Assembly: GCA_044346175.1 (NCBI GenBank)
Contig: JBIIZQ010000005.1
Location: forward strand, 20,818 to 84,817
Length of the DNA stretch: 64,000 nt
Direction of reading: 5' to 3'
Source: Vampirovibrionales bacterium
Lineage (GTDB): Bacteria; Cyanobacteriota; Vampirovibrionia; Vampirovibrionales; JAJTHC01
A program made the translations under genes and the position numbers. The notes under the pieces were generated by a model, which was not told the origin of the DNA, searched no databases, and saw only the letters and a program-made list of their open reading frames with translations. Every line of letters begins with the position of its first letter. The first letter of the stretch is position 1. Below are positions 6,013 to 63,925 of this stretch, one piece after another.

Positions 6013-6960
6013 ATGCTTGCCTCCCATAGTCGTGAACTTAAAACTGAAGCCCTTGTCCTGAAAGCCTGTGACTGGAAAGAAACTGATAGGCTCCTATGGG
6101 TGTTGCTTCCTTCCGAAGGGCTGAGTAAAGTCATCGTAAAGCGAGCCAGAAAACACGGGGCTTCCATGGCAGGTGCCGCCCAAGCCATGGCATGGCATAC
6201 CCTTCACTTAAAACGCATGGGGAGCCAAACCCTTAGTAATCCCCTACGTTCAGGGAGTGGCACCCAACCCTACTCGCAAATCACAGGTACGCTGGGGAGC
6301 GAACCTAGCTGGTGGGTACTTGCACAATACGTCCCTCAGCAGATGTTTCCTAAGCTAAAAGCCCATATGCCGAATCATACTTTGGCGATGTTAGCCTGTG
6401 AAATGACGCTTGGTGTTTTAGAAGCAGGGGGCGGTGTTCTTGAAACAACCTCTCAAGAAACCTCACAACCCTACCAAGCCTTATGGACGCATGTACTGGC
6501 ACTGCTTAACGTGTTAGAAACCTCTCCTACCGAAGTGACGCACACCCAAGAAGTGACACCTTGGCACTATGTGGTGCTACTGCGTTGGTTGAGGAAACTT
6601 TTGCATTTGGAAGGTTGGTTAGCTGAGGAGTCGTTGTGCTTACGTTGTGGCATCACGTTGATAGACTATCCACACGCCATTTACTGGGATGCGGAAGCCC
6701 TCGGAGGGGTTTGTCATGACTGTGCTACCACGCACACCGCATCACAGACGGACACCTCAAGATACTCTCAATCCTCCATGCTTACCCTACTAGGCACTGA
6801 AGAAGCCCAAGCATGGTGCCATCAGTTTGCCCCTTTTTGGCATATGCCCGCAGAGGTTAGGTTACAGTATGGGGCTTTGTTACAACAATGGCAAAACCGA
6901 CTGCTTGATGCTTGGGAAAGGCAATACGGGCGAAAGCTTCATACCCGTTGCTTACTTTAA
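6013..6960 (+). CDS. recO: DNA repair protein RecO
   Basis: RecO-like N-terminus (EALVLKACDWKETDRLLWVL) and a C-terminal Cys cluster CLRCG...CHDC typical of the RecO zinc-binding domain. Confidence 0.55.
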   Translation: MLASHSRELKTEALVLKACDWKETDRLLWVLLPSEGLSKVIVKRARKHGASMAGAAQAMAWHTLHLKRMGSQTLSNPLRSGSGTQPYSQITGTLGSEPSWWVLAQYVPQQMFPKLKAHMPNHTLAMLACEMTLGVLEAGGGVLETTSQETSQPYQALWTHVLALLNVLETSPTEVTHTQEVTPWHYVVLLRWLRKLLHLEGWLAEESLCLRCGITLIDYPHAIYWDAEALGGVCHDCATTHTASQTDTSRYSQSSMLTLLGTEEAQAWCHQFAPFWHMPAEVRLQYGALLQQWQNRLLDAWERQYGRKLHTRCLL

Positions 6961-10485: not shown

Positions 10486-12468
10486 ATGTCCTACGGTTTT
10501 TTCTCATTGTTACTTAAAATAGTATTCGTGGCTTTGTTAGTAATCCCCTTGGTGGGCATCATCGCAATGATGCTTGTTTGTATAGAATTACTCGTTTTAG
10601 GGTATCTAACAGTTACACTGATTAGAATATGCTCTTGGATTAAGCGCGCAGGGGGAAAACTGGTTTCCGACATTTGGTCACTTTGGGTAGATATTCATCC
10701 TTTCAAGAAAGAATTTTGGAATGGGCATTCCTTTAGCTTGCTATTCCATACATGCCATGATGTCCTGATGAAAAACTGGCTTTCGGATAACGCCCTAGTA
10801 GACATACTGGAAATGTTGGCTGACCGTTTTGCCTCTTTCTTTATGCGTATTATGACTATCGTATGGGATATGCTGAAAGTTGGTTTACTCGTACTGATGC
10901 CTTCTATCATTCTAGTTCTTACAGTGCCAAGCTTTAGAAACAAACCCCAGATAGAGTCGGTTCTTCAAGCGTGTAGCAATAACGCTCTAATACAGGATTT
11001 GTTTTACAAAGCCAAAAAAAACGAAAACGATTCTTCCAAATCCCAAATTGATTTCCAGAAGCTTGCCGAATTTATTAGAAACAAACCCCAGATAGAGTCG
11101 GTTCTTCAAGCGTGTAGCAATAACGCTCTAATACAGGATTTGTTTTACGAAGACAAAAAAAACGAAAACGATTCTTCCAAATCCCAAATTGATTTCCAGA
11201 AGCTTGCCGAATTTATTGGAAAACTTACCGTTCTTTTTGCAGCCTTAACCTTGATATTTAACTACTACAAGCACCGTAATGATGAAGCCAAAAACCTTAT
11301 TAAAGACTGGCTTCATACCTCTGAAGGAAAGCTCATTTGTGATGTGCTTGAAAATGAACTTTCAGTGATTGAACACCCTTTTCATAAACAAGACAAAGAT
11401 AAAACTGACTTCTTAGTAGATTGGAGCTATACAGGGCCTGCAACACTCATTATTCAAAGTAAAACCGATCCAAAGTTTAAGGATTTATCTTTAACGTTTG
11501 CACAGTGGTGGCTAAATGCTTACAACCTGATTGAAAAAGATGACTCCAAAGACCGCTCCTATGCTGATGTTTTAAGCAAAGCCATAAGACCATTTAGCCT
11601 ATGTCTGACACAAAACGAAGCATGCAAGGAACGCAAGGAATGCCAAGAATGCAAAAGCATCACAACATTAAAAGACTTACTAGAGGTTTGTAAAACCATT
11701 GCGGAACAAAAGGGAAACGGCATTTTTATACGTACGATGCAGGGCTATCCCGAACTATTAAAAGGTTTAGAACATGAGGTAAGGGAGCAACATTTCTTTA
11801 ACGACATTCTTTCGCCAGACCTTTTAAATAAAACGCCTGAGCAATTGCTGGTGTCTCCTACGACCCTTATCACCTATACTTATTACTTCTTATCAAGACG
11901 ATATCTATCAGTTATCAATGCTTTTTACAATGCTATTGCGGATAAAAAAGTAAACTTGAGTTATGCAGAAAAGCAACTCATTTTCGCTTTTGATACCTTT
12001 TTTCAAAGCTTACGTAAGGTGGCACTGAGCATCAAACAACGCAACGTGACGTATGACGATGTAGAACCCACCGTATGGTATTGGCTTGACCGTATTGAGT
12101 ATCTCATTGTAGAAGGTAGACTTAAAGACCCTAAATACGAATACTACTCTTTCGTTGCCCATTATATTATAAGAGACTACCCTGAGATTTTTGAACTCCT
12201 TGCACGTCGACATCTTGATTGGCAAATCAGCTGGCGTAAGCCTCGGTATCGAACCTTAAAGCAACAAAAACATCGTGAAGCTTACAATGCTGTGATTAAA
12301 AAGATGATTTCAGACAATGAAAAAGCAATGAAAAAAGCTACAGAAACCCCCTACGAACCTTTAAAATTCTATGAAGACCTCGCCATTGAGCTTTCTGAAC
12401 TCAAACGAATCCAACTCCTCAAAAAGAGTCTTTACGTGAGGATGAAATGCGAAAGCTTAAAGGAGTAG
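10486..12468 (+). CDS. Hypothetical membrane protein with a bilobed N-terminal hydrophobic domain, an internal 47-aa tandem duplication and a K/E/N-rich C-terminus (effector-like)
   Basis: The gene is distinctly AT-rich compared with its flanks. There is an N-terminal ~45-aa bilobed hydrophobic segment and a second TM segment. No recognisable catalytic domain. Confidence 0.5.
   Translation: MSYGFFSLLLKIVFVALLVIPLVGIIAMMLVCIELLVLGYLTVTLIRICSWIKRAGGKLVSDIWSLWVDIHPFKKEFWNGHSFSLLFHTCHDVLMKNWLSDNALVDILEMLADRFASFFMRIMTIVWDMLKVGLLVLMPSIILVLTVPSFRNKPQIESVLQACSNNALIQDLFYKAKKNENDSSKSQIDFQKLAEFIRNKPQIESVLQACSNNALIQDLFYEDKKNENDSSKSQIDFQKLAEFIGKLTVLFAALTLIFNYYKHRNDEAKNLIKDWLHTSEGKLICDVLENELSVIEHPFHKQDKDKTDFLVDWSYTGPATLIIQSKTDPKFKDLSLTFAQWWLNAYNLIEKDDSKDRSYADVLSKAIRPFSLCLTQNEACKERKECQECKSITTLKDLLEVCKTIAEQKGNGIFIRTMQGYPELLKGLEHEVREQHFFNDILSPDLLNKTPEQLLVSPTTLITYTYYFLSRRYLSVINAFYNAIADKKVNLSYAEKQLIFAFDTFFQSLRKVALSIKQRNVTYDDVEPTVWYWLDRIEYLIVEGRLKDPKYEYYSFVAHYIIRDYPEIFELLARRHLDWQISWRKPRYRTLKQQKHREAYNAVIKKMISDNEKAMKKATETPYEPLKFYEDLAIELSELKRIQLLKKSLYVRMKCESLKE
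10936..11217 (+). repeat. Intragenic near-perfect tandem duplication (2 x 141 bp, 47 aa each)
   Basis: agaaacaaaccccagatagagtcggttcttcaagcgtgtagcaataacgctctaatacaggatttgtttta... is repeated head-to-tail with only 3-4 substitutions (K->E, A->D). Confidence 0.9.
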
Positions 12469-14478: not shown

Positions 14479-14515
14479 GTCTTCTGAAAGTCAGTGCCAT
14501 TTTTTATCTCATACG

Positions 14516-14585
14516 GTCATACCGACGAAAGTCGGTATCCAGCTCCTTATGCCTCTTGGATTCCGACCTGCGTCGGAATGACGAC
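14516..14585. repeat. MITE/REP-like palindromic element, copy 1 (two hairpins)
   Basis: Hairpin 1 is gtcATACCGACgaaaGTCGGTATcc. Hairpin 2 is ggATTCCGACctgcGTCGGAATgacgac. The same termini occur in inverted orientation at 41965..42085. Confidence 0.8.
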
Positions 14586-16768: not shown

Positions 16769-18820
16769 CTAAGCCGTGACACGCTGAGGTGCTGAAGGGG
16801 TCATGCTCGGTAAATGGCTCGAAAAATGGGGTGGCTCTACCGTTAATACGCCCAGTTTTTCTCGTTGGCGACGTTTTTCTAACGAATTCGTCACCCAAAT
16901 ACCTAATTGTGGTTCAAGGAAAGCAAGTAAGGCGACAGAAATGGCAGCACTCGTTAGGGTGACACGATTTTGTGTATGTTTTACACGGGCGACTAAGTCG
17001 GGCAAGTGCTTGATTTGAGACTCACTTAACCGTAAGGCATGTTGCATCATGGGGCGTGTAATTTCTTGGGCATCTCGGCGTACACTGTAATCAGCCGTTT
17101 TAAACAGGAGTTGATGGCCTACTTGCTTGCTTTGCTCAAAAGTCATTAAGCCATCCCGTACCAAGGTGTGCATAAGCTGTTTGTTTGCAAGACGGCTCAA
17201 ACCCTGGCGTAGCCACTGGGTTCCCCAAGTGAGGGTAGGGAATCCTAATATATTGTCACGCAGTAACGTTTCTCTAAAGTCGGCATCGTTTCTACTTTCC
17301 ATGAGACGAATGCCACATAAAGCCCCATACGTGAACTCCATTTGACGTAAGGTTGTAAAAGGAAAAGTACGCTCAAAGGACAGAAACTCTTTCATGCCCT
17401 TGGCAAAATCTAAACCCAAACGTCCCGCTTTCTGAGTCACAAAGTGTCGACCCGCTACAGCACCCAAAAAGCCGAAAAAGCCTGCACTTACAAGAGCAGG
17501 TGTCAAGTTGCCTTGTTTCAAACTTTCACGGATGTAGGGAAACCATTTCACGTGAGTTTTAGGGGTTGGCGTATTAGATGCTTGGACTGGTGCTTCTTTG
17601 CTTGCTTGGGGTGTCTGTCCAAAACGAGTTTGAAAGGTAGGCACTTGAGAAGAAGCGTAAGAGGCGTTGGTCTTTTGTGTTGACACTGCAAAAGGTTGGG
17701 TTGCACCCATAAAGGGGGTTGCCACGACCATGGCGGGTACTTTACTCAGCAGTCCAGAGGACGTATTGGAGATGGGGTGAGTACTAGCGGGGGTTGGATG
17801 ACTTAGGGGGGTATTTTTACCAAGGGATTTTGCTAATTTATCGTAGTGTTCCGAGATGGCACGGGTAGCAGGGTTGGTATCAGCCTGTGGCCCATAGCGT
17901 TTTACCATCATTTGACGTATCCAGTGAGGAATCATCAAAGAAATGCTAAAAGCAGCCAATGTACCAAGCCCCTGCCAAGGCTGATGTTTGAGTGTGGTTT
18001 CCGCCATATGTGCCAGTTTACTATCCCACGCATGCCCCTCATGGCGTGCCATGCGGGTAAGGTCATGCAAAATATTGGGTAGCGTGGTTTCAACAGGGTG
18101 TCCCGTGTGTGGGTGTTTTAAATGAATATCCAAACTAGGGAGGCGTAAAGCAGCCGCAAGGTTTTGTGCTTCATGCGTGTAGGGGTCTTGAGTTTTGCCT
18201 AAAAGGCTATCAAAGGCATGCCGAAAATGTCCGCCTGTTTGTTGTGCAGTGGTGGTTTCCCACTTGACCAGTTTATCCACAGCTTTTTGCAATGATGTTT
18301 GACCTAAAAGCCTTTCCTGTGAGGTCTCTTGGGTGATGGTGGAGGCTTGCGGGGACTGCACAAGCTTTTGTAATGTATTGAAAAAATCTTGTTGATGACG
18401 ACTTTTCTCGGCAATGGTTCTATACACCTCAAGACTATCAGCATCAATATTGTGTTGTATTAAGCCACCATGACGTTTGTCCAGATGTTTTCCTACAACG
18501 TAAGTTGCAAGTAGACCAGGTAAAAAGGTATCAGTAAAATCTGCCGCTGTATCTCGGATGAACATTTCCTCGCCAGCTTGTTTGTTTTTCTCACCCGTGA
18601 TGTCAAAGGTACGGTATTGTTGCTGTACAAACCTTGGTACGGTGTAACCAAAGGTCTGTTCCACAGCGTAACGTACGCCTTCTCCTCGGTTATATAAGCT
18701 ATCGGCAACCCCGTTCATCAGTTGCGTTGCAACAGAAGCACCCCCTGAAAAGCGTGCTGTTTGGGGTACACGATGCTTTGTTGGCGTAGGCAATGACAAG
18801 GCAGAAGAGGAAACGAGCAT
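16769..18820 (-). CDS. Large hypothetical protein (683 aa)
   Basis: A long ORF with a central S/T/P/Q-rich low-complexity region. No recognised motifs. Confidence 0.4.
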   Translation of the reverse strand: MLVSSSALSLPTPTKHRVPQTARFSGGASVATQLMNGVADSLYNRGEGVRYAVEQTFGYTVPRFVQQQYRTFDITGEKNKQAGEEMFIRDTAADFTDTFLPGLLATYVVGKHLDKRHGGLIQHNIDADSLEVYRTIAEKSRHQQDFFNTLQKLVQSPQASTITQETSQERLLGQTSLQKAVDKLVKWETTTAQQTGGHFRHAFDSLLGKTQDPYTHEAQNLAAALRLPSLDIHLKHPHTGHPVETTLPNILHDLTRMARHEGHAWDSKLAHMAETTLKHQPWQGLGTLAAFSISLMIPHWIRQMMVKRYGPQADTNPATRAISEHYDKLAKSLGKNTPLSHPTPASTHPISNTSSGLLSKVPAMVVATPFMGATQPFAVSTQKTNASYASSQVPTFQTRFGQTPQASKEAPVQASNTPTPKTHVKWFPYIRESLKQGNLTPALVSAGFFGFLGAVAGRHFVTQKAGRLGLDFAKGMKEFLSFERTFPFTTLRQMEFTYGALCGIRLMESRNDADFRETLLRDNILGFPTLTWGTQWLRQGLSRLANKQLMHTLVRDGLMTFEQSKQVGHQLLFKTADYSVRRDAQEITRPMMQHALRLSESQIKHLPDLVARVKHTQNRVTLTSAAISVALLAFLEPQLGIWVTNSLEKRRQREKLGVLTVEPPHFSSHLPSMTPSAPQRVTA

Positions 18821-19974
18821 AAAGCGTAAGGCAACTTCAATAACAGGGAAAACAAGGAGGAAACGGTGACCTAAGTAAGCCTTAAAGACTCAAGGACCAA
18901 TGGAGTCTCCCATGTAGAAGCAGCCATGCAATAATGCGTATGTTTTAAAACCTGTGTTGTGACAATCAAGAGAGTCGTAAGGGGATGGTGTTTTAATGAA
19001 ACCACCATACATAAACCCACTGTTAAACATTTTACTTTCATGGAGAACCAGTGTTTGCATTAAAACTTAAAGCTGAATGGGGTTTAAGGTTAAAGATTTC
19101 GTGCAGTAACGAGAGATTGATGCACGTCGTGATACGATAAAACACCCTCAACAAAAAGCAGTGCGTCCAAAACCCAAAACACATGCTAGGGTTCAGGGCA
19201 GCATGTGAGTTGAAAGACTCACATTGACTGCGATACACTTATTCAAAAATCCAAAAAAGCAACATGACACAATCTTGTAGCACTCCACGGAGGTTATGAG
19301 GGTCTTGAAACCTCAACATACCACTTCCATGACAGTTGTTGGGTATTAACCTCAACAACCAAGTATCTCTGTGCCTTAAGCAGGATACTTTCGGCATCAC
19401 TTCCCTTTTTGTGAAGTTACTTTAGAGATGGCACTCTAAGAAGAAACCAGGCAGTTTCAAAGGCAACCGCACATACTTTTGAAGGATGCACCTCTACAGG
19501 GCAATGTTATTATGCGTGAAATAAACCCACGATACAAGCCCTTATCTCTCATAAAGAAAGCATGTAACGCAAAGATGTAACATCCTGTGAATGTCGGTCT
19601 GGTGTCGTCCTGTAACGAAATGTTACAATCGGGCTTTTTTGTCAAAAGCAATCTTATTTCAAAGGGTAAGTTTGATGAAACTTTGTTAAAATAACAGGAT
19701 GCTCTTCTACAGTGTTAATAATGTAATAATGTTGCATTAAATGTATCTTTTTCATATACTCTATTTGTATAGAGTACTTGAGATAGATATTTTAAGCTCT
19801 GTTTTAGGCTGATACGTTCTGGTTTCGGTAACTGCCTGAGTGATGATATTCGTTTTAAATGATGTGTGTGTGCTACCCATTTGCTTCATCACAATGTTGA
19901 AACCTAGCCATTCTTTTTTATTCTCTAGATTGTTCACGTATTTTAAAATTGTTTCATAAGGTCTTACAAAGGAT

Positions 19975-41964: not shown

Positions 41965-42085
41965 CTCGTCATGCCGACGCAGCTCGGAATCCAGAAGAAG
42001 CGAGGTAAGAGGTTTAAAAGCCTGAATGCCTTTTTTCAGTGGCCTCAGTAGCTACTGTGGATACCGACTTTCGTCGGTATGACGC
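41965..42085. repeat. MITE/REP-like palindromic element, copy 2 (inverted relative to copy 1, with a longer internal segment)
   Basis: The left end tcgtcATGCCGACgcagcTCGGAATcc and the right end ggATACCGACtttcGTCGGTATgacgc are reverse complements of the two hairpins at 14516..14585. Confidence 0.8.
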
Positions 42086-49551: not shown

Positions 49552-49723
49552 AGCATATCCCTTTCAGCATTCGTGAAGTAGTGGCAAGTAATCTCTATCA
49601 AATCATCCGTGATAAATACTGCGACATCAAGTATTGATAGCACAGTACAGTCACTGACTTTCTTTAGCGTACCACTGGGATTAAATCCTTTTTGAACCGA
49701 ACCAGCCGCCCCTACACCATACC

Positions 49724-49769
49724 CTAGATTCCGTCCTGCATCGGAATGACTCGGCAGGGCGGAATCTAG
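49724..49769. repeat. MITE/REP-like element, copy 3 (single-hairpin variant with an outer inverted repeat)
   Basis: ctagATTCCGtcctgcatCGGAATGACtcggcagggCGGAATctag is related to the ATTCCGACctgcGTCGGAATGAC arm of copy 1 (19 of 23 identical). Confidence 0.6.
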
Positions 49770-49879
49770 GGACTACGATAAGTAATAAAGTCGGTCGCTA
49801 CGCTACAGGTCGCAATAAAAAGTCCTCCCAAGCTAAGGTGCTAGGAGGACTTTTTGAAGGGTTATCAAAGTGTGTAGGG

Positions 49880-52431: not shown

Positions 52432-52815
52432 ATGACAAGCCTCGGATTTTGCCAACCTACTGCCAACTATTGCCGTCCTCAATTTGGTGGATTTCATAGA
52501 GGCTACGCCCAAGGGTATTATCAAGGAGCTGCGAATATGAATCATCAGTGGCATAACTGGTACAACAATGCTTTTTGTCAGCCTCAAACATGGCAGTCTT
52601 CCTATTGTTTACCTAGTACTTACACCAATAGCTGGGCGAATGCCAGTGCTTATGCCAATGCGGGTAGTTGGGGTGGTAACGCCTATGCGAATGCGTATGC
52701 TTATGCAGGGGCAGGCTCTGGAGCCAATGCGTATGCCTATGCCAATGCGAGTGCAGGAAGCTGGGGCGGTAATGCCTATGCGAATGCGTACGCTTATGCA
52801 GGAGCTTGGAGCTAA
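52432..52815 (+). CDS. Small Cys-containing Tyr/Asn/Ala/Gly-rich repeat protein (127 aa; ~31-aa repeat ...SWGGNAYANAYAYAGA...)
   Basis: It has a good RBS, a candidate promoter and a strong terminator immediately downstream. The DNA carries ~93-bp tandem repeats. Overlapping ORFs in other frames (including a His-rich reverse frame) are by-products of the repeats. Confidence 0.5.
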   Translation: MTSLGFCQPTANYCRPQFGGFHRGYAQGYYQGAANMNHQWHNWYNNAFCQPQTWQSSYCLPSTYTNSWANASAYANAGSWGGNAYANAYAYAGAGSGANAYAYANASAGSWGGNAYANAYAYAGAWS

Positions 52816-55732: not shown

Positions 55733-56180
55733 GTCGCCTTATGGTAGTTCGGTAAAATGAGTAAAAAATCTAAGTGTATTTATAAAAAAACTAACGCTAT
55801 TCTAGCATGAAAGAAATGTTACAGACCTTTTTAAGGTTTTACTTTTATACTTTCATATCGTCATTTCGCACGGCGTTGCGGAATCCAGAGGGCTTACAGT
55901 ATCACCGAGGGCTGGAGATGAATTTTCAACCGATGTGCATTTGGTATCACGTGAGAAAACAGGCATTATTCCTATTGCCTCATGTTAAAGATTGTAACGT
56001 TTTATGCTGACAAGAGGGTTTTAAGAGCTTCCAAAGGTAGCAGTCTTGTTTGAGCATCGTTTATACTCATGAATCATTGGGGTAATATCCCGCAATTAGG
56101 TTTAGAGATACCCGTACGCCTTAAGTACAAGCATACGAAATACCAGGGTGTGTTGAGAGCCAATAGATGTTCCAAAAAAC

Positions 56181-58351: not shown

Positions 58352-59413
58352 TTACTGATTGCGATGTGCAACAAACGTGGTGAGTTCATGTAGGGTATCC
58401 AGCGTGTCAAGGGCGTGTTGATGATTCAAAGTATATAAACAGGCCTGTGCCTCTTCAAGAAGGAGGGTTTGTTGAGCCCGAGCTTCATGAAGACCAAGTG
58501 CAGTGACATACGTCCATTTATGCTGTGAGGCATCTTTGCCAGCTGTTTTCCCAAGCGTATGGGTATCGTGTGTTGCATCAAGAATATCATCGCTTAATTG
58601 AAAAAGCAGACCAATACACCGTCCCCATTGATGAAGAAGTTTTGCAGTGGGATGAGTCTCAATATCCTTAGGCCACAACCCAGCAGCTACGCCCAACATG
58701 ACAGAAGCTTCAATCATGGCACCTGTTTTCATACGATGAATCCACGCCAAGCTCTGTAATGACTTGGGTAAAGGTTCACGCTCATGATGAGAAAACCACA
58801 TATCGGCGTATTGCCCCTCAATTAAGCCTGGTCCGAGTATCGCTTGGGTGAGACACTGACTCGCCCAAAGCCTTAGCCCGAGAGGTATTTTTTCATCATG
58901 TAGCACGTGGTGTAGTGCAAAGGTTTGTAAAGTATCACCGATGAGAAGGGCTTCCCACTCAGAAAATTGCTTATGGAGTGTTGGTAAACCACGTCGTAGT
59001 TCGTCATTATCCATACAGGGGAGGTCATCATGAGCTAAGCTAAACGCATGAATGCTCTCTAAAGCCACACCAAAGGACAATGCCCATTGAAGATTTTCTT
59101 GATTGGCTCTTAATGCCTGTGCCACGCTGTAGGCAATAAACGGACGAAAGCGTTTGCCTGGTGATAAAAGTGCGTAGCGTAGTCCTTCGTGATAACGGGT
59201 GAATACGGGTGGTAAACAAGCCTCAGAGGCTGGCAAACTATGCTGGTGTTTTTCTTGAAGCGGATGGAGTGCTTCTTTGAGGGTTCTCTCGAAAAGCGTT
59301 TGAAAAGATTGCAACAGTACGGTACACGATAAGCTTTCAGCTTCATGTTCTACTTGCAAAGAGGATGCTTGAGCCTCTTTTTGACTTGGATTTTGGCAAC
59401 TATCAGATGACAA
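58352..59413 (-). CDS. Polyprenyl diphosphate synthase (FPP/GGPP synthase family)
   Basis: First Asp-rich motif LAHDDLPCMDND, second FQLSDDILD, and conserved K/R residues. TTG start in the ORF call. Confidence 0.75.
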   Translation of the reverse strand: MSSDSCQNPSQKEAQASSLQVEHEAESLSCTVLLQSFQTLFERTLKEALHPLQEKHQHSLPASEACLPPVFTRYHEGLRYALLSPGKRFRPFIAYSVAQALRANQENLQWALSFGVALESIHAFSLAHDDLPCMDNDELRRGLPTLHKQFSEWEALLIGDTLQTFALHHVLHDEKIPLGLRLWASQCLTQAILGPGLIEGQYADMWFSHHEREPLPKSLQSLAWIHRMKTGAMIEASVMLGVAAGLWPKDIETHPTAKLLHQWGRCIGLLFQLSDDILDATHDTHTLGKTAGKDASQHKWTYVTALGLHEARAQQTLLLEEAQACLYTLNHQHALDTLDTLHELTTFVAHRNQ

Positions 59414-62448: not shown

Positions 62449-62866
62449 GTAGGGGACGGTTTATAACCGTCCCGCAAAAACCCACCGTAAAAACGACAAA
62501 TGTCATACACAAACAACCCTAACGGGAGGGTTACAAACCCTCCCCTACGTTACGTTTCAATTATCTTACACCGTCTCTGATGCGGGTCGACATCCAGCAT
62601 GTGTTCTGTAGGGGACGGTTTATAACCGTCTCGCAAAACCCCCACCGTAAACACGACAAACGGCATACACAAACAACCCTAACGGGAGGGTTATAAACCC
62701 TCCCCTACGTTACGTTTCAATTATCTTACACCGCCTCCGATGCGGGTCGACATCCAGCATGTGTTCTGTAGGGGACGGTTTATAACCGTCCCGCAAAAAC
62801 CCACGGTAAAAACGACAAACGGCATACACAAACAACCCTAACGGGAGGGTTATAAACCCTCCCCTA
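62449..62866. repeat. Tandem array (2.6 copies) of a 159-160-bp composite unit carrying two GC-rich 9-bp-stem hairpins with TAT/ATA loops
   Basis: Each unit holds GGGACGGTTtatAACCGTCCC, about 45 nt of A/C-rich spacer, and GGGAGGGTTataAACCCTCCC. Copies differ by only a few SNPs. It sits in the convergent gap between lipA and ORF 63053. Confidence 0.9.
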
Positions 62867-63052
62867 CAATAGGGATAGCATGGGGATGATGTAAGATACG
62901 TGAAAACGGTTTTTAGGTGCAAGCCTTCATGCGATTGACCTGTGCCAGCTTTTTGTTTTGCCTATCGGCTAGGGTGTGCGAGTTGGCATAAGCATTCAGG
63001 GAATCCTTCTTGATTCAGAAAGACTCCCTGAAGCCTCGTTGCGATGAAAGGA

Positions 63053-63925
63053 TTAAGTGGAGGGTTGGTATCTCAGAATGTCACCTAAAGTGGTATTCCC
63101 TAAGTTACCATTTGCACCCGCTGTGGCATCAGCAGCGGCGGTGGCTACTTTCTCAACAAAGGTTGTATCAAAATAACCTGTTTGGCAACCGTTAGGGGTT
63201 CGTACGTTCATGTGGATTTTGTACTCACCGTTTTCAACGACAATCCGCTTTGCCATGGCATTGTTAGCCCCGTCAATTTCTTGACCTGTCGATACCGTTA
63301 AGCCGTTGGCATTGATGGGTGCAAAGTTACCGCCGAAGAGGTTGCCTGCACGCATGTAACTATTCCCTTGTTTCACAAGAATGTCGCCACGTTGTCCTTT
63401 GCTACCATCGGCAAGTACAAAACTATCATCGTTGTTGGCAAGGGTAATCACGCCACCCCCATTAAACTCATAGCGTCCGACCCCAGGCCCGTTTAGGTCG
63501 CCTTTCACCCCTACGCCTGCAATTTGTAAACCACTGGAAGGGTCAACCAGCAATTCTTTACGTTCCCCATGATTGATGGGGAAGGTTCCCATTTCACCTT
63601 TGGTGTAGTTCCACCATTCGGGGTCGCCACAAATGCCCGCTGAGTTTAAAGGGTTATTGGGTGCAGGTGGCGGAGGTGGCGGCGGTGGTGTAGGTGGTAA
63701 AGGTGGTGGTGGTGTAGGTGGTAAAGGAGTAGGTGGTAAAGGAGGAGGCGGAGGTGGACACGGTGGGGGTGGACATGCCGCTTGTTGTTGATAGAACCAG
63801 TTTCCTTGCTCATACCAGCTGCCTGTAAATTGTTGTGCCATGGCAAGGGCTTGTTGCTGATAAGCCAGTGCAAAAGCCATTTCTTGGCTGTTATCTCGTG
63901 CCATGTAGTTGGATAGGCTTCCCAT
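63053..63925 (-). CDS. Hypothetical protein with a Q-rich N-terminus, a ~40-residue polyproline linker (PPPPCPPPPPPLPPTPLPPTPPPPLPPTPPPPPPPPAP) and a Gly/Asn-rich C-terminal domain
   Basis: No domain was recognised in the long ORF. The proline run is encoded by GC-rich ggtgg/aggtgg repeats on the plus strand. The N-terminus may extend upstream of the ORF-track start, possibly to the window edge. Confidence 0.45.
   Translation of the reverse strand: MGSLSNYMARDNSQEMAFALAYQQQALAMAQQFTGSWYEQGNWFYQQQAACPPPPCPPPPPPLPPTPLPPTPPPPLPPTPPPPPPPPAPNNPLNSAGICGDPEWWNYTKGEMGTFPINHGERKELLVDPSSGLQIAGVGVKGDLNGPGVGRYEFNGGGVITLANNDDSFVLADGSKGQRGDILVKQGNSYMRAGNLFGGNFAPINANGLTVSTGQEIDGANNAMAKRIVVENGEYKIHMNVRTPNGCQTGYFDTTFVEKVATAAADATAGANGNLGNTTLGDILRYQPST

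Follow-up and report, generated by a model that had tools for sequence, protein, structure and literature searches.

The short palindromic repeats dispersed through the window (the whole 64-kb stretch of Vampirovibrionales DNA analysed here) are identified by sequence comparison as belonging to the known NTS/SRM hairpin family, in which they represent a stem variant from a new host lineage. They are probably Ssn-related hairpin motifs of the NTS family, which would be cut as folded single strands by a cognate Ssn nuclease. Palindromes of an uncultured, probably predatory, non-photosynthetic relative of the cyanobacteria that had no explanation would now be tied to a known biochemical partner, and for annotation they are to be entered as repeat elements and not as terminators or small genes. 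Both the family and its partner were already published in 2025 and the finding is of modest interest. The CCGAC stem variant described here escapes the published motif, yet occurs in many phyla and beside Ssn-type genes. The Ssn family is also of practical interest, as a source of sequence-specific cutters of single-stranded DNA.

The reference system is that of Neisseria. Chenal et al. 2025 (Nat Commun, PMC11893778) defined the NTS, CGTCATTCCCGCGMAVGCGGGAATCYRG, which contains dRS3 (ATTCCC-N8-GGGAAT), together with a degenerate 'Ssn-related motif' (SRM). Hairpins of the SRM type flank small single-domain GIY-YIG genes (SsnA, 94 aa, cd10448) in many phyla; Ssn has been reported mainly in Pseudomonadati (PMC11893778). 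SsnA binds the single-stranded form of one strand only, and its cut falls a few nucleotides 5' of GTC. Cleavage is governed by the three bases that precede the palindrome, and the most critical base for Ssn binding is the C right after it (PMC11893778). In N. meningitidis, Ssn lowers the integration of transforming DNA that carries the NTS. The NTS copies are mostly intergenic, with 2% lying inside genes (PMC11893778).

A single oriented hairpin unit is found six times in the window, as an inverted head-out dimer at two intergenic sites and alone at two others. It is 27-28 nt long and consists of a 5' (C)GTC, a stem of the form AT-W-CC-GAC with a 4-nt G-M-A-V loop, and a 3' C that is usually part of CCAG. 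Its consensus is (C)GTC-AT[W]CCGAC-N4-GTCGG[W]AT-CCAG, with an 8-bp stem and a loop of gaaa or gcag. The units and associated segments are given below; scores are those of the covariance model R1, whose 80 distinct source units all come from other genomes and with which the window was searched with filters off.

14514..14544, plus strand: hairpin unit 1a, cgGTC-ATACCGAC-gaaa-GTCGGTAT-CCAGct; 42.0 bits, E = 4.5e-10
14554..14584, minus strand: hairpin unit 1b, tcGTC-ATTCCGAC-gcag-GTCGGAAT-CCAAga; 38.2 bits, E = 6e-9
41966..41996, plus strand: hairpin unit 2a, tcGTC-ATGCCGAC-gcag-CTCGGAAT-CCAGaa; 32.3 bits, E = 3.7e-7
41997..42054, no strand: spacer (core) of dimer 2, 58 nt between model matches, unrelated to the spacer of dimer 1
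42055..42085, minus strand: hairpin unit 2b, gcGTC-ATACCGAC-gaaa-GTCGGTAT-CCACag; 36.8 bits, E = 1.7e-8
49722..49752, minus strand: single hairpin unit 3, gaGTC-ATTCCGat-gcag-gaCGGAAT-CTAGgg; 23.1 bits, E = 2e-4
49753..49771, no strand: remnant 3' half of a second unit at copy 3, ...GGCGGAATCTAGGG
55858..55890, plus strand: sixth, degenerate unit, tcGTC-ATTTCGCA-cggcgt-TGCGGAAT-CCAGag; 19.7 bits, E = 0.002

The GTCAT flank is present in all six units, as is a C directly 3' of the stem (tails CCAG in three units and CCAA, CCAC and CTAG in the others). The two flanks, GTC on the 5' side and CCAG on the 3' side, differ from each other and do not pair, and it is this asymmetry that gives the unit its orientation. 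According to R1, three of the stems are perfect and three imperfect. Units 1a and 1b form the left and right halves of dimer 1, separated by a 15-nt spacer; both have perfect 8-bp stems (14519-14526 paired with 14531-14538 in unit 1a, and 14560-14579 in unit 1b, whose hairpin reads ATTCCGAC-ctgc-GTCGGAAT on the forward strand). As single-stranded DNA, the dimer folds into one long hairpin (-19.1 kcal/mol, z = -5.3). Dimer 2 is the same pair inverted as a whole element: its left half, unit 2a (hairpin at 41968-41993), is degenerate, with two mispaired stem positions, which R1 flags as non-canonical pairs, whilst its right half, unit 2b, has a perfect stem (42061-42080), and the single-stranded fold of the whole has an energy of -26.3 kcal/mol (z = -4.1). 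Unit 3 retains a 6-bp perfect stem with the ATTCCG-N8-CGGAAT geometry seen in dRS3. The outer inverted repeat of this copy, CTAGATTCCG...CGGAATCTAG, is produced by the remnant GGCGGAATCTAGGG pairing with CCCTAGATTCCG at 49722-49733, and it is through this pairing that the copy (49722-49771) folds as single-stranded DNA (-20.1 kcal/mol, z = -7.1). The sixth unit, TCGTCATTTCGCAcggcgtTGCGGAATCCAGAG, has a 6-nt loop, and one of the eight pairs of its stem is G-T. Since this unit alone folds weakly (z = 0.15), its assignment rests on its flanks and stem pattern. It lies in a divergent intergenic region upstream of alaS; the other three sites fall between co-directional genes, immediately 3' of a stop codon.

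The original prediction had described three copies of a family of small palindromic elements, and the palindromes are real, with every described sequence found where it was placed. The three copies hold five units, all of which are recovered by R1 (E = 4.5e-10 to 2e-4); the count itself was short by the sixth unit at 55858-55890, which had been missed. The descriptions of copy 2 as the same two hairpins inverted around an unrelated core, and of copy 3 as one hairpin nested in an outer inverted repeat, were borne out, and the ORF context confirms that all copies, and all six units, are intergenic. What did not survive was the view that the repeated entity is a pair of shared terminal inverted repeats around a variable core. 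The repeated entity is the oriented hairpin unit with its asymmetric flanks, and the 'variable core' is better read as the arbitrary spacer of a head-out dimer of one unit, in the manner of NIME and BIME elements.

Comparison with the Neisseria NTS consensus places the units in this family. The window unit agrees with CGTCATTCCCGCGMAVGCGGGAATCYRG at 24 of 28 positions, and the four mismatches amount to two compensatory swaps of stem pairs (CG to GA and CG to TC). The CGTCAT flank, the TCC at the start and the GGAAT at the end of an 8-bp stem (beginning ATTCC), the G-M-A-V tetraloop and the C of a CYRG tail directly after the stem are common to both. The likeness extends to behaviour in the genome, as both are intergenic, occur in doublets and arrays and have a wide but patchy taxonomic spread. 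The differences are that the inner stem is CCGAC/GTCGG in the window units and CCCGC/GCGGG in the NTS, and that the window comes from the Vampirovibrionales (kingdom Bacillati), whereas Ssn is known mainly from Pseudomonadati. With Neisseria dRS3, the window shares a 20-bp palindrome of 6+8+6 architecture, ATTCCC-N8-GGGAAT in dRS3 and ATTCCG-N8-CGGAAT here; the two differ by one base per palindrome half, and dRS3 is defined without oriented flanks. Nf filamentous prophages also use dRS3 as an integration target; the window has nothing comparable. In Neisseria NIME elements, pairs of repeats bracket variable 'RS' cores, as copy 2 of the window does.

The published search strings do not retrieve these units. 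The SRM pattern HGTCWYN(0-2)YYVSBRHN(0-5)WNVSBRGN(0-2)RNCYNB matches none of the six and makes a single unrelated match in the window, in coding sequence (47907); it misses the units because it demands G or C where their stems have A. Similarly, the NTS pattern with up to one mismatch matches no window unit. The SRM and NTS strings are operational tools and not a biological definition of the family, and the failure of the window units to match them stands recorded.

The concentration of the motif in the window exceeds chance. The string CGGWATGAC occurs four times against an expectation of 0.58, and the flanks alone (GTCAT-N14-20-ATC[CT]A) occur ten times, compared with 1.26 in 200 dinucleotide shuffles (maximum 5). 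The four stem-less matches to this flank pattern are at about the chance level, and the three that were checked all lie inside ORFs. A pair of both unit flanks without a stem at 59001-59016 (TCGTCAT-t-ATCCATAC), within ORF 58352-59413, is probably a chance occurrence (R1 E = 0.25). A scan of the whole window with Rfam at gathering thresholds returned only a lysine riboswitch and a tRNA, with nothing at the repeats.

The same motif recurs far beyond this genome. In a scan of GTDB species genomes, the exact 24-nt sequence GATWCCGACNNNNGTCGGWATGAC was found in at least 118 genome stretches from at least 14 phyla, compared with about 4 expected by chance as calculated from uniform base composition. 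Among the matches listed, the hosts include Methylotenera, Gallionella, Neisseria, Deefgea, Alpha- and Gammaproteobacteria, Syntrophales and other Thermodesulfobacteriota, Bacteroidota, Ignavibacteria, Kapaibacterium, Caldithrix, groups of the Candidate Phyla Radiation (CPR), Dehalococcoidia, Planctomycetes, Treponema, Synergistaceae and Verrucomicrobiota. This spread over many phyla is unlike that of a species-specific REP family. Only three matches fell in viral contigs, so the motif is not a phage feature. Sibling units at the 118 listed loci keep GTCAT and ATCCAG but vary in the inner stem, with CCGGC, CCGTG, CCCGC, CTGGC, GCGGT and others represented. In other genomes, 57 pairs of units are arranged head-out, 9 tail-out and 14 in direct orientation, and the spacers of the head-out dimers range from 12 to 106 nt.

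The palindrome itself is under selection. To avoid circularity, the stem played no part in the choice of units: in 821 kb of listed loci, the flanks GTCAT...ATC[CT]A[GT] served as the sole criterion, and the spacing between them proved to be sharply defined, with 164 matches at 16 nt and between 0 and 2 at 13-15 nt. Pairing holds in 97.8% of cells across the 80 distinct units, and six of the eight pairs show double (compensatory) changes, whilst slid registers give 13-46% pairing. The covariation score of 0.391 compares with 0.119 in shuffles and was reached by none of 500 shuffles. This covariation fits a hairpin formed by a single strand and a palindromic binding site in double-stranded DNA alike.

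In other genomes, these hairpins lie beside genes of the Ssn type. A survey of the 150 ORFs within 250 bp of hairpins at the 118 listed loci found GIY-YIG to be the top Pfam family, with seven members, of which three short ORFs had been displaced by a greedy overlap filter and were re-added by hand. An Ssn-like profile HMM was built from four candidate ORFs, and a six-frame search of the listed loci with it identified nine Ssn-like ORFs at eight of the 118. A scan of five of these showed each to be a single-domain PF01541 GIY-YIG protein, with lengths of 94-105 aa. At a Methylotenera locus (L067; L numbers denote loci in other genomes), ATWCCGAC dimers lie on either side of the Ssn-type ORF at 6024-6308. 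Its 94-aa protein possesses Y6, Y17 and E64, as read from the sequence; mutation of Y6, Y17 and E64 inactivated the 94-aa SsnA of N. meningitidis (PMC11893778). The Ssn-type ORFs of L072, L115 and L003 abut ATWCCGAC units and that of L029 lies about 200 bp from one. The same Methylotenera MAG (CAZUOQ01) encodes, on one contig (L067 528-887 and 5937-6403), two Ssn-type GIY-YIG paralogs that are 64% identical and are bracketed by different stem variants, ATTCTGGC in one case and ATWCCGAC in the other. This pairing of paralogs with different stems suggests that a single genome can harbour several cognate nuclease-hairpin pairs. It is in other genomes, as at L067, that the exact CCGAC-stem variant is seen directly flanking Ssn-type genes. 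Tandem hairpin arrays with a regular spacing of 105 bp and 156 bp, respectively, lie beside the Ssn-type genes of L003 (4003-4239) and L032 (4867-5205), and resemble the NIME arrays of Neisseria.

No such gene accompanies the repeats in the window. The six-frame HMM search found no GIY-YIG ORF there, and the Pfam gene lists for the window with flanks of about 8 kb at either end (~80 kb in all) include neither a GIY-YIG gene nor a transposase. The genes shown by these lists are housekeeping genes only, e.g. those for FtsH, Rieske/cytochrome b, FlhA, FliH, AlaRS, MiaA and BcsA.

The permease encoded beside a repeat clusters with proteins labelled Vampirovibrionales. Within this order, the family is lineage-restricted, as the window carries six units in 64 kb whilst R1 finds none in about 76 kb of Vampirovibrionales and Melainabacteria relatives, where about seven would be expected at the density of the window. 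These relatives comprise 21.5 kb of the closest MAG (74-87% amino acid identity), two contigs at 66% and two distant Melainabacteria MAGs. Restriction to one lineage is as expected for an acquired, expanding repeat. The window genome and the closest relative identified by protein search, GCA_046080605.1, are heavily rearranged with respect to each other, and two of the breakpoints in synteny coincide, anecdotally, with the intergenic locations of copies 2 and 3. The contig of the relative ends inside the permease gene, the other two sites are rearranged, and the intergenic DNA is too diverged to align. A metagenome scan with the permease that neighbours a repeat found no relatives for an empty-site comparison. 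In GCA_046080605.1 (L124 5336-7140), a relaxase and NikA-like pair lies between ftsH and glyQ; the equivalent position in the window lacks it.

The proposed mechanism follows the single-strand cutting described by Chenal et al. 2025 (PMC11893778). When single-stranded, the unit would fold into a hairpin, and a small (~94 aa) single-domain GIY-YIG Ssn would bind the stem together with the 3' C. Cleavage is predicted a few nucleotides 5' of GTC on that same strand, with the complementary strand left uncut. The spread of the repeats may be linked to hairpin-flanked ssn genes; such genes are typically flanked by hairpins in the manner of a small insertion sequence, which is thought to explain the dispersal of the repeats (PMC11893778). 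We infer that a cognate Ssn is, or until recently was, present in the host, with the six window units as its substrates.

The chief rival explanation sees the units as orphaned relics. This model agrees with the preferred one on the family assignment and differs only on present-day function: the seeding element would have been lost, or was never resident, and the hairpins would persist neutrally or have been co-opted as stabilisers of mRNA 3' ends or as recombination hot spots. The decay of three of the six units, coupled with the lack of an ssn gene in the ~80 kb, means that some or all of the units may indeed be relics of this kind. The location of three sites between co-directional genes, just past the stop codon, and the two synteny breaks are likewise in keeping with this model, and an ssnA homolog is missing from 19% of the genomes that carry more than 200 SRMs (PMC11893778). 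Against this, three of the units remain perfect 8-bp palindromes and have kept their flanks intact, which is hard to reconcile with a long period of neutral decay; little can be read into the lack of ssn in 80 kb, as this covers only a small part of a genome; and the hairpins, not being followed by T-tracts, are not canonical terminators. Overall, the orphan scenario is judged unlikely, though it retains an appreciable probability.

An extension of the preferred reading, that of hairpins cut by a cognate Ssn, can be put forward tentatively and with somewhat less than even confidence. It proposes that the CCGAC hairpin represents a separate Ssn specificity class, lying outside the SRM pattern, which has spread horizontally over at least 14 phyla and was recently acquired by one Vampirovibrionales lineage, with its dimers also travelling as cargo of miniature inverted-repeat transposable elements (MITEs). 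The suggestion of recent acquisition derives from the ~76 kb of relatives without a unit. If the CCGAC hairpins do form a separate class, the Ssn/hairpin system would be broader than reported, and if the MITE cargo proposal is correct, it would provide the first concrete route for the dispersal of hairpin dimers.

Two further models invoke transposases, as the original prediction had done. In the first, the repeats would be REP/REPIN elements mobilised by a RAYT of the IS200/IS605 Y1 family. The resemblance to the REP, BIME and REPIN elements of Enterobacteria and Pseudomonas is considerable, as these too are short extragenic palindromes of patchy distribution that form inverted doublets with short spacers and no target duplication; the window dimers fold as one long single-stranded hairpin, and in both systems a small gene of the single-strand-DNA-specific nuclease type is flanked by its own repeats. 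However, the partner fold is HUH/Y1 in REP systems and GIY-YIG for Ssn hairpins, and the conserved 5' motif is GTAG in RAYT-type REPs and GTC(AT) here. REP/RAYT pairs are also usually lineage-specific, whereas an identical 24-mer spans at least 14 phyla in the present case. The window and its flanks contain no IS200/IS605, RAYT or other Y1 transposase gene, and among the 150 neighbour ORFs at the 118 listed loci of other genomes, where GIY-YIG tops the list, Y1 (Y1_Tnp) and IS110 transposases are missing from the recurrent Pfam families and no RAYT, IS200 or IS110 family is enriched. Mobilisation by a RAYT is on these grounds very improbable.

The second of these models regards the repeats as classical MITEs, non-autonomous derivatives of DDE insertion sequences that are mobilised in trans and make target-site duplications. 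The small size, intergenic position and inverted-repeat architecture recall Correia-type MITEs. In contrast to those, the window copies are without target-site duplications, for which a check had been proposed, and have no shared core and no extended terminal repeats, the inverted repeat of the dimers not reaching beyond (C)GTCAT/ATGAC(G). The cores are unrelated, single units occur and the window and flanks hold no transposase. At their hairpin boundaries, 56 dimers elsewhere are likewise negative. The model finds its support in a Candidatus Kapaibacterium MAG (JANYDO01), where the same hairpin dimer is carried in a 125-bp element at the following positions.

L033 4539-4663, L042 2033-2157, L044 15-139, L066 1922-2046, L075 4975-5099 and L092 2682-2806: 125-bp MITE copies of Kapaibacterium

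This element possesses outer inverted repeats, TAGGACTTTCGCAAA...TTTGCGAAAGTCCTA, and carries the ATTCCGAC/ATACCGAC hairpin dimer as internal cargo. Its 5-bp target-site duplications differ in sequence from copy to copy and are perfect in five of six (TATCT, CATTG, ACTCA, GATAG and ACTCT). The combination of outer repeats and duplications is confined to these Kapaibacterium copies, and among the hairpin dimers examined only this derivative is a true MITE. For the window repeats, an origin as classical MITEs has a very slim chance of being correct.

Finally, the hairpins lie at gene ends and have GC-containing stems, as would unrelated intrinsic terminators that are alike by coincidence, but no T-tract follows any unit, and three of the sites were scanned for terminators with negative results. 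In addition, units of both orientations share one site, conservation extends to the non-pairing flanks and R1 E-values reach 4.5e-10; the terminator reading is refuted by the recurrence of the same motif across many phyla, and the earlier proposal of a dispersed, REP-like hairpin family, with at least 118 stretches now known, holds in its place.

Several other features of the window are recorded here in their own right. Between a radical-SAM gene and the next ORF, a 160-bp unit is repeated 2.6 times in tandem at 94% identity (62449-62867), and a Logan assembly contig ends at this array. The unit contains two inverted hairpins, GTAG-GGGACGG-tttataa-CCGTCCC and GGGAGGG-ttataaa-CCCTCCC-CTAC, the arms of which show a compensatory C-G to G-C change. 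GTAG with a hairpin at one end and a hairpin with CTAC at the other is the REP/REPIN signature of RAYT transposases, and this array belongs to a different family from the repeats studied here. The lysine riboswitch (RF00168, 74.7 bits) is located at 19270-19504 on the minus strand, about 450 nt upstream of a 683-aa ORF (16769-18820, minus strand) without a Pfam match. A near-perfect tandem duplication of 141 bp (47 codons) at 10934-11222 lies in a 660-aa ORF (10486-12468), also without a Pfam match. A 93-bp imperfect duplication with Ala/Asn/Tyr-rich repeats is present at 52636-52805 within ORF 52432-52815, and a Gly-rich GGT/GGC short-period repeat at 63657-63782 within ORF 63053-63925.
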